This document shows positions 55,699 to 55,968 of a stretch of DNA of 64,000 nucleotides, piece by piece. The notes beneath the pieces were generated by a model, which was not told where the DNA came from, made no database searches, and saw only the letters and a list, made by a program, of their open reading frames with translations. The position numbers and the translations under genes are program-made. Source of the DNA: Macrostomum lignano (lineage: Eukaryota); NCBI GenBank assembly GCA_002269645.1, contig NIVC01002830.1, positions 73,512 to 137,511 of the forward strand, in the 5' to 3' direction. Position 1 is the first letter of the stretch. Each line of letters begins with the position of its first letter.

Positions 55699-55968
55699 AG
55701 TAGTATAGAAAAAGACGCTTCTAGACCCAGAGCACTTTTTTAATGACCGTTTTAAGGGTCTAGAGGGGGGACACGGGGGGTAAATAAAAAAACACATCTA
55801 AACACCCTTAACACATCTAATCACCCATAATCACCCCTAACAATAAAAATCATTCCCAACACTTCCAAACACTCCCCAACACCCCCCTCGCGTCCCCCCT
55901 CTTAAGACCTTAAAAACGGCCATTAAAATAAGGTCTGATCTGTAAGCGTCTTTTTCTATACTACTACT
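55699..55968. repeat. Self-complementary terminal unit: perfect 22-bp inverted repeat extended by about 60 bp of imperfect arms around a G-free loop
   Basis: AGTAGTATAGAAAAAGACGCTT (55699-55720) is the exact reverse complement of 55944-55965. 55739-55781 pairs imperfectly with 55881-55927. Confidence 0.95.

Follow-up and report, generated by a model that had tools for sequence, protein, structure and literature searches.

An inverted copy of the terminus nested within the left end of a decayed Polinton-like element of Macrostomum lignano

We have analyzed a stretch of 64,000 nucleotides of the Macrostomum lignano genome (contig NIVC01002830.1 of assembly GCA_002269645.1, positions 73,512 to 137,511), hereafter the window, in which a mobile element interrupts a host satellite in the middle of a repeat unit at 55698 (Table 1). 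The element starts with AGTAGT at the host junction, an (AGT)2 end motif that is the commonest one reported for vertebrate Mavericks (PMC8097293). The last six satellite bases (55693–55698) are expected to be the left target duplication, with the right-hand partner outside the window. To the right of the terminus the GC content drops to 26–39%. A first-pass annotation had already assigned this DNA to a Polinton, and the AGTAGT terminus, an ORF similar to protein X and a broken gene for a protein-primed polymerase (pPolB) bear this out: the unit described below is the left end of a decayed Polinton or adintovirus-like element.

The 331-aa ORF gave 48 matches, of which three carry adenovirus protein X (PF05829) and 13 PLA2 (PF08398) in precomputed annotation. 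The ORF itself had no Pfam match to either family, and a match to SseC was dropped for being below the cut-off. The polymerase gene matched PF03175 and PF02945 (endonuclease VII) and has 1632 homologues at E ≤ 1e-30, the nearest of them at approximately 50% identity; a sequence search of the PDB with a full-length homologue gave 0 matches. The named relatives of both genes come from molluscs, insects and cnidarians. We have also modelled an unbroken N-terminal piece of the polymerase (mean pLDDT 84.7), and the model matches Y-family little-finger and OTU domains in a comparison with PDB structures and adintovirus proteins in BFVD, one of them at E 8e-18. This agrees with a published TP-vOTU layout (bioRxiv 10.1101/2024.03.18.585575) and, judging by the model, the polymerase keeps a terminal-protein-like domain. 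Genes for an rve integrase, a packaging ATPase, a protease or a capsid were not found in the 8.3 kb present, and the element continues beyond the window.

Table 1. Features at the left end of the element, in coordinates of the window.
Feature	Position	Strand	Basis or remark
24-bp host satellite with (GA)n, the insertion site of the element	54803..55698	.	Sequence
Outer arm, the terminus of the element, with the (AGT)2 end motif at its start	55699..55780	+	Sequence, arm alignment, several flanks before 55699
Loop, C/A-rich, unstructured, degenerate 9–10-bp tandem array	55781..55883	+	The strand ending 3' at the terminus is G/T-rich
Inner arm, the terminal 82 bp in inverted copy	55884..55965	-	Alignment; seen in 4/4 runs
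Third AGT trimer, only on the inner copy	55966..55968	-	Sequence
GC-rich hairpin with GCA triloop, closing the terminus of high depth (boundary 56005)	55976..56003	+	Fold, depth step, loose ends
Variable segment, 343 bp, carried by a minority of copies including the present one	56006..56348	.	Depth, joints
107-aa ORF, no family found	56380..56703	+	Domain and homology searches
331-aa ORF, protein-X-like as in adintoviruses	56788..57783	+	Relatives with PF05829 or PF08398
Protein-primed DNA polymerase gene, broken into pieces: TP-like and OTU-like N-terminus, endonuclease VII, PolB_2	57867..61599	+	

The terminal 22 bp of the element (55699–55720) are found again, perfectly inverted (22/22), at 55944–55965. 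Allowing up to three mismatches, these are the only two matches to the terminal 22-mer in the window, both inside the unit, and two matches were reached in none of 100 shuffles. The arms can be aligned over 85 columns of which 71 are identical, i.e., 22/22 at the tip and 49/63 (78%) further in; the 14 differing columns, with six gap columns, all lie outside the terminal 22. A stem of about 85 bp and an (ACT)3 at 55960–55968 had been recognized at first pass, both correctly. The unit had been delimited there as 55699–55968, and its length of 267 bp holds; its end has to be moved to 55965, the third ACT having been included. The inner arm stops exactly at base 1 of the element, without host letters and with one extra trimer. 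The predicted fold of the unit has −57 kcal/mol (DNA parameters), with a z of about −12.5 against 100 dinucleotide shuffles; in it the terminus strand has a perfectly paired 3' end with further template in front. The G–T wobbles in the stem are three and three between strands, indicating no strand bias.

The loop had been described as a G-free stretch of 109 nt. The G-free run does extend over 55781–55889, but its last six bases belong to the inner arm and pair in the stem, so the unpaired loop is 103 nt long (55781–55883). Its short repeats occur at the counts first given and are pieces of one degenerate tandem array. The period of approximately 10 bp corresponds to one helical turn, as for protein-binding iterons. 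The repeats resemble telomeric CCCTAA-type units, the G/T-rich strand running 5' to 3' toward the end with the polarity of a telomere. The first reading had also proposed a G-quadruplex on the opposite strand of the loop. No canonical motif (G3-N1-7 or G3-N1-12) was found on that strand, and a looser G pattern with loops up to 20 nt does match but overlaps the stem. Besides, G4Hunter gave 1.32 for the loop alone and its best value, 2.44 at 55875–55899, comes from G runs paired in the stem. We have rejected this idea as weak.

Part of the stretch was present in 17 of the 20 sequencing runs listed (runs with small word shares were left out), and we compared four runs from four studies, all as contigs, over 55680–58080. 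The inner arm was covered in the four of them, with depths at 55913 of 4652, 32534, 1074 and 456, similar to those of the rest of the terminus. Most of the depth at 55913 carries another base than here, a family-level variant whose commonest allele breaks a pair of the stem, and no change compensating it was found among 40 of the 236 variants listed. Just one of the 40 best-supported variants falls in the terminus. These data are hard to reconcile with a foldback produced during library preparation or assembly, for which one could cite that no listed contig spans the whole unit and that one run (X13) carries adapter-like loose ends. Contigs specific for the inner arm appear in every one of the four runs, and arms that differ by some 20% (14/85 columns) had already been considered an argument against an artefact in the first-pass annotation; we regard this explanation as very improbable. 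The family-level depth of the inner arm speaks against an assembly foldback and against a one-off event alike. The inverted repeat is thus real, family-wide and polymorphic, and present in most termini of the family.

Depth also delimits the conserved terminus. In the four runs the summed contig depth is high up to 56003, drops 9–22-fold over 56004–56327 and rises again over the ORFs. Other copies join 56003–56005 directly to 56347–56352 by several short junctions, i.e., the 343-bp stretch is missing there. Several different continuations start at 56005, with two runs showing other letters behind this position, and a 20-letter piece of one continuation had no match in the window with three or fewer mismatches; these alternative sequences may belong to the inner side of the right end or represent more variants of the left one. 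Because of the depth boundary at 56005 and the missing target-site duplication (see below), the unit looks like part of a terminal repeat of approximately 307 bp (about 55699–56005) and not like a free mini-element. We infer from depth and loose ends that this conserved terminus, which includes the GC hairpin beyond the unit, is a TIR, and that the nested arm is mirrored at the element's right end. In the variable segment (56006–56348) the depth is 6–16 times below that of the ORFs, other copies showing 0–24 letters or different long inserts; the segment holds a hairpin with a 9-bp stem near 56251–56273.

Short elements bounded by Polinton ends are known as non-autonomous Polintons, and one explanation is that the 267-bp unit is, or yields, a minimal MITE-like element of this kind, mobilized in trans, and that the end of the present element derives from one such copy. 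Both end motifs are present in the unit and oriented as an integrase would require, and in one of the four runs the terminus was four times deeper than the ORFs (terminus/ORF ratios were 1.08, 1.29, 1.39 and 3.98, with no clean 2, and summed contig depth is not copy number). Against it, there is no target-site duplication around the unit, the six bases before it differing from the six after 55965 and from the six after 55968. Besides, the bin 55923–56003, about half of which lies beyond the unit, had 0.8–1.2 times the depth of the three preceding bins, including the run with the 4-fold ratio. In run X5 eight contigs carry differing flanks before 55699 (agreement 0.57), and no loose ends were located behind 55965–55968 among 24 of the 304 listed. 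A second copy of the unit was not found within the 64 kb of the window. A free satellite of 267 bp, one of the options of the first reading, is disfavoured by the missing duplication and by a depth that in the four runs falls only after 56003, and we consider it unlikely, although a few solo copies may exist.

There are also signs of variation inside the terminus. Loose ends of C/A-rich letters were detected directly before 55968 in two of the four runs, and two joints, 55791>55972 and 55733>55981, were seen at depths of 11–29. One of these loose ends fits the loop end best within the element, a fit that 75 of 2000 shuffles equal, so that rare copies without the inner arm are suggested but not proven.

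The terminus inversion listed among the first options is kept here as the origin of the inner arm, not as a one-off event, given its depth in the four runs. Our preferred reading, to which we give a probability of only about 0.45, is that the inner arm arose as a snap-back copy of the terminus, became common in the family and today allows a displaced 3' end to be protected or repaired by folding back. While a free linear copy was being replicated, its nascent strand would have snapped back, with the C-rich loop end annealing onto the G runs at 55765–55780, and copied its own first 82 bases up to the physical end. There it would have slipped one extra ACT on the trimer repeat before rejoining the template. 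The new end would then have spread through the family, the arms diverging by about 20% since. Replication would still start by protein priming from the tip, and the 3' end of the displaced strand would anneal to the inner copy, so that the unstructured loop is closed off. The folded tip would be shielded, and the inner copy would act as a local template to refill terminal bases that had been nibbled. Such refilling would keep only the last 22 bp or so identical, the inside decaying. A snap-back on a linear molecule would explain both the stop of the inner copy at base 1 without host DNA and the apparent arm-less copies. An integrated copy as template is disfavoured because copying would then have no reason to stop at base 1, and the stop is indirect evidence that this lineage replicated as free linear DNA.

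There is prior evidence of fold-back repair of a protein-primed end in Streptomyces (PMC5449611), which we count in favour of the protection and repair reading. The same source counts against it as well, since the long-range pairing named Rabbit Ears, which is the closer analogue in geometry, was found there not to drive repair. The proposal has further weaknesses. The terminus/ORF depth ratios given above depart from the value of 2, no feature is seen that would keep extension from overrunning the inner copy, and a full panhandle has a far lower energy than local folding. The majority allele at 55913 breaks a pair, and the wobbles have no strand bias. The contrast between 22/22 identity at the tip and 78% further in has a naive P of 0.004, but with drift confined to the inner copy, selection holding the outer 22 bp constant, 22 tip matches have a P of approximately 0.06–0.08 (hand calculation).

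The inner arm may instead be a functionless relic, i.e., a snap-back duplication that happened once and was carried along by an expanding lineage. The 22-bp identity would then be due to the outer copy being under selection, together with chance or a conversion now and then. The P for a single drifting copy, the broken pair at 55913, the unbiased wobbles and the possible arm-less copies all fit this explanation. The feature was also found in none of 12 ends of distant relatives (see below), indicating that such elements do not need it. Two observations are less easily accommodated: arms diverged by about 20%, gaps included, have none of their 14 differences in the terminal 22 columns, and the terminus contributes so little to the best-supported variants (1 of 40). 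We consider a relic possible and grade it nearly as likely as protection or repair.

The first-pass annotation had suggested a terminal hairpin acting as a second origin or self-primed intermediate. The hairpin can form, at least in the predicted fold, and in the strong form of this suggestion the folded 3' end would prime a parvovirus-like copy of the second strand, the endonuclease VII domain opening the hairpin. The paired 3' end with template ahead of it and the PF02945 match in the polymerase are as this mechanism would have them. However, protein priming needs no replacement and self-priming is not needed, since the terminal-protein-like domain is apparently kept. PF02945 is common in the polymerases of relatives whose ends, where examined, lack the hairpin, and nuclease inserts of this kind have been read as intein or homing invasions (bioRxiv 10.1101/2024.03.18.585575). 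Hairpin transfer would moreover flip or homogenise the arms, which differ by about 20%, and no strand-changing joint was seen among 15 of the 20 joints listed. The model of Polinton replication rests on a panhandle between the two ends, and in our computations an intermolecular or end-to-end panhandle has −409 kcal/mol versus −140 for two local folds. Hairpin-primed synthesis seems to us quite improbable, slightly more so than the non-autonomous element.

A more ambitious version would have both ends as maintained fold-back telomeres, the 3' end being repaired or extended from the inverted copy. It would make the hairpin a back-up of a protein-primed transposon, placed between adenovirus panhandles and parvovirus hairpins, and the same ends could be cut out by the integrase as a minimal element of 267 bp. 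We find this version doubtful, although conceivable. We know of no experimental demonstration of Polinton replication and end maintenance. With an old and partly conserved inverted copy of the origin in its ends, this family offers a naturally occurring test of two points, the importance of individual terminal bases and the existence of single-stranded intermediates. A neutral arm would still be useful for tracing the history of subfamilies, and would mislead annotation based on TIRs into calling a MITE of 267 bp.

Kapitonov and Jurka are said to have put forward a racket model for Polintons in 2006. Adenovirus mutants with embedded ITRs provide internal inverted copies of the terminus in a protein-primed virus; unlike these and the non-autonomous Polintons, the unit described here has no target-site duplication, runs on into the element, and is a natural, old feature shared across the family. 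The present element resembles animal Polintons/Mavericks (adintoviruses) in its (AGT)2 end motif, TP-OTU-PolB polymerase, protein-X-like ORF and many decayed copies, and its probable terminal repeat of about 307 bp is inside the reported range of 46–1447 bp (PMC8097293, PMC8502044). It differs in nesting the reversed terminal 82 bp within the terminal repeat; the word "hairpin" has 0 occurrences in the main texts of these two papers. In searches of the Polinton/Maverick literature on end structure, no listed title or opening of an abstract described a nested inverted terminus; the TIRs in the supplement of PMC8097293 and the Repbase entries could hold cases. Apparently this end architecture is undescribed so far, in an element that is otherwise an ordinary decayed Polinton.

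Similar situations exist outside animal transposons. In the telomeres of Streptomyces (Tap/Tpg), a protein-primed linear end can pair with an internal inverted copy and has triloop hairpins nearby; the likeness meant here is one of architecture, and these telomeres are bacterial, combine an internal origin with end patching, and are repaired via a local palindrome of 13 nt instead of long-range pairing (PMC5449611). The mitochondrial telomere of Chlamydomonas reinhardtii has an internal repeat of 86 bp that copies about 85 terminal bases and was proposed to pair with the single-stranded end, although in an organelle genome, without a terminal protein and at one end only (PMC3711419); a 2026 preprint reportedly disputes the telomere model. 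Parvoviruses and AAV share with our element a 3' end able to fold back on itself (PMC4938981, PMC4061559). They differ in that the end analyzed here has a loop of 103 nt and diverged arms, and no HUH/NS1 nuclease gene was seen in the 8.3 kb within the window. Bidnaviruses, which took their pPolB from Polintons, have ITRs that form panhandles and no hairpins (PMC4938981, PMC4061559).

We have searched for the feature in relatives, taking 29 viral loci with 30–42% polymerase identity (best segment) to the query homologue and picking by eye 12 contig ends from nine of them, four of which (L138, L151, L153 and L159) have a TIR or an AGT-type start. None of the 12 ends had a nested inverted terminus, with the first 22 bases reaching at most 12–17/22 against any inverted stretch within 1.5 kb. 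The feature is thus not general in such elements, the sample consisting of distant relatives. In 13 metagenome loci no terminus was recognizable, and their DNA bore no resemblance to the unit. The terminal 20-mer had 0 matches in viral contigs, a degenerate arm motif gave 0 as well, and scans of viral contigs for related loci with a polymerase piece and two alignments found none. The only match to a nested 10+10 pattern (L163) was a chance one within a coding ORF, without longer arms, and a perfect 23-bp inverted repeat in L010 (659–1022, approximately 340 bp apart) was intergenic, upstream of a distantly related polymerase gene, and unrelated. A 16-mer had at least 120 matches in prokaryote genomes. 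BLAST of the terminus against 133 loci gave nothing longer than 30 bases among the best eight matches, and a phage collection gave no match. Rfam gave no match in the unit and one sub-threshold match outside it.

Small GC-rich hairpins are scattered over this AT-rich element. Like the one at 55976–56003, a double mini-hairpin with AAA loops lies at 61091–61118, in frame in the polymerase gene, where it amounts to an insertion of 10 residues with respect to the homologue P0050; by eye, others appear near 61815–61836 and 62809–62828. They may be small mobile palindromes. Families of dispersed GC-rich palindromes of their own are also found between the genes of the related elements L151 (1553–1656, 4343–4372, 11572–11935 and 15740–15763) and L152, and of L007 (4996–5028, 5475–5507 and 8974–8988). 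In the TIR of a distant relative (L153, 11–72) there is, by eye, a subterminal imperfect hairpin with a C-rich loop in which the terminal bases are not involved. Finally, a perfect tandem duplication of 29 bp is located inside the element at 62961–63020.
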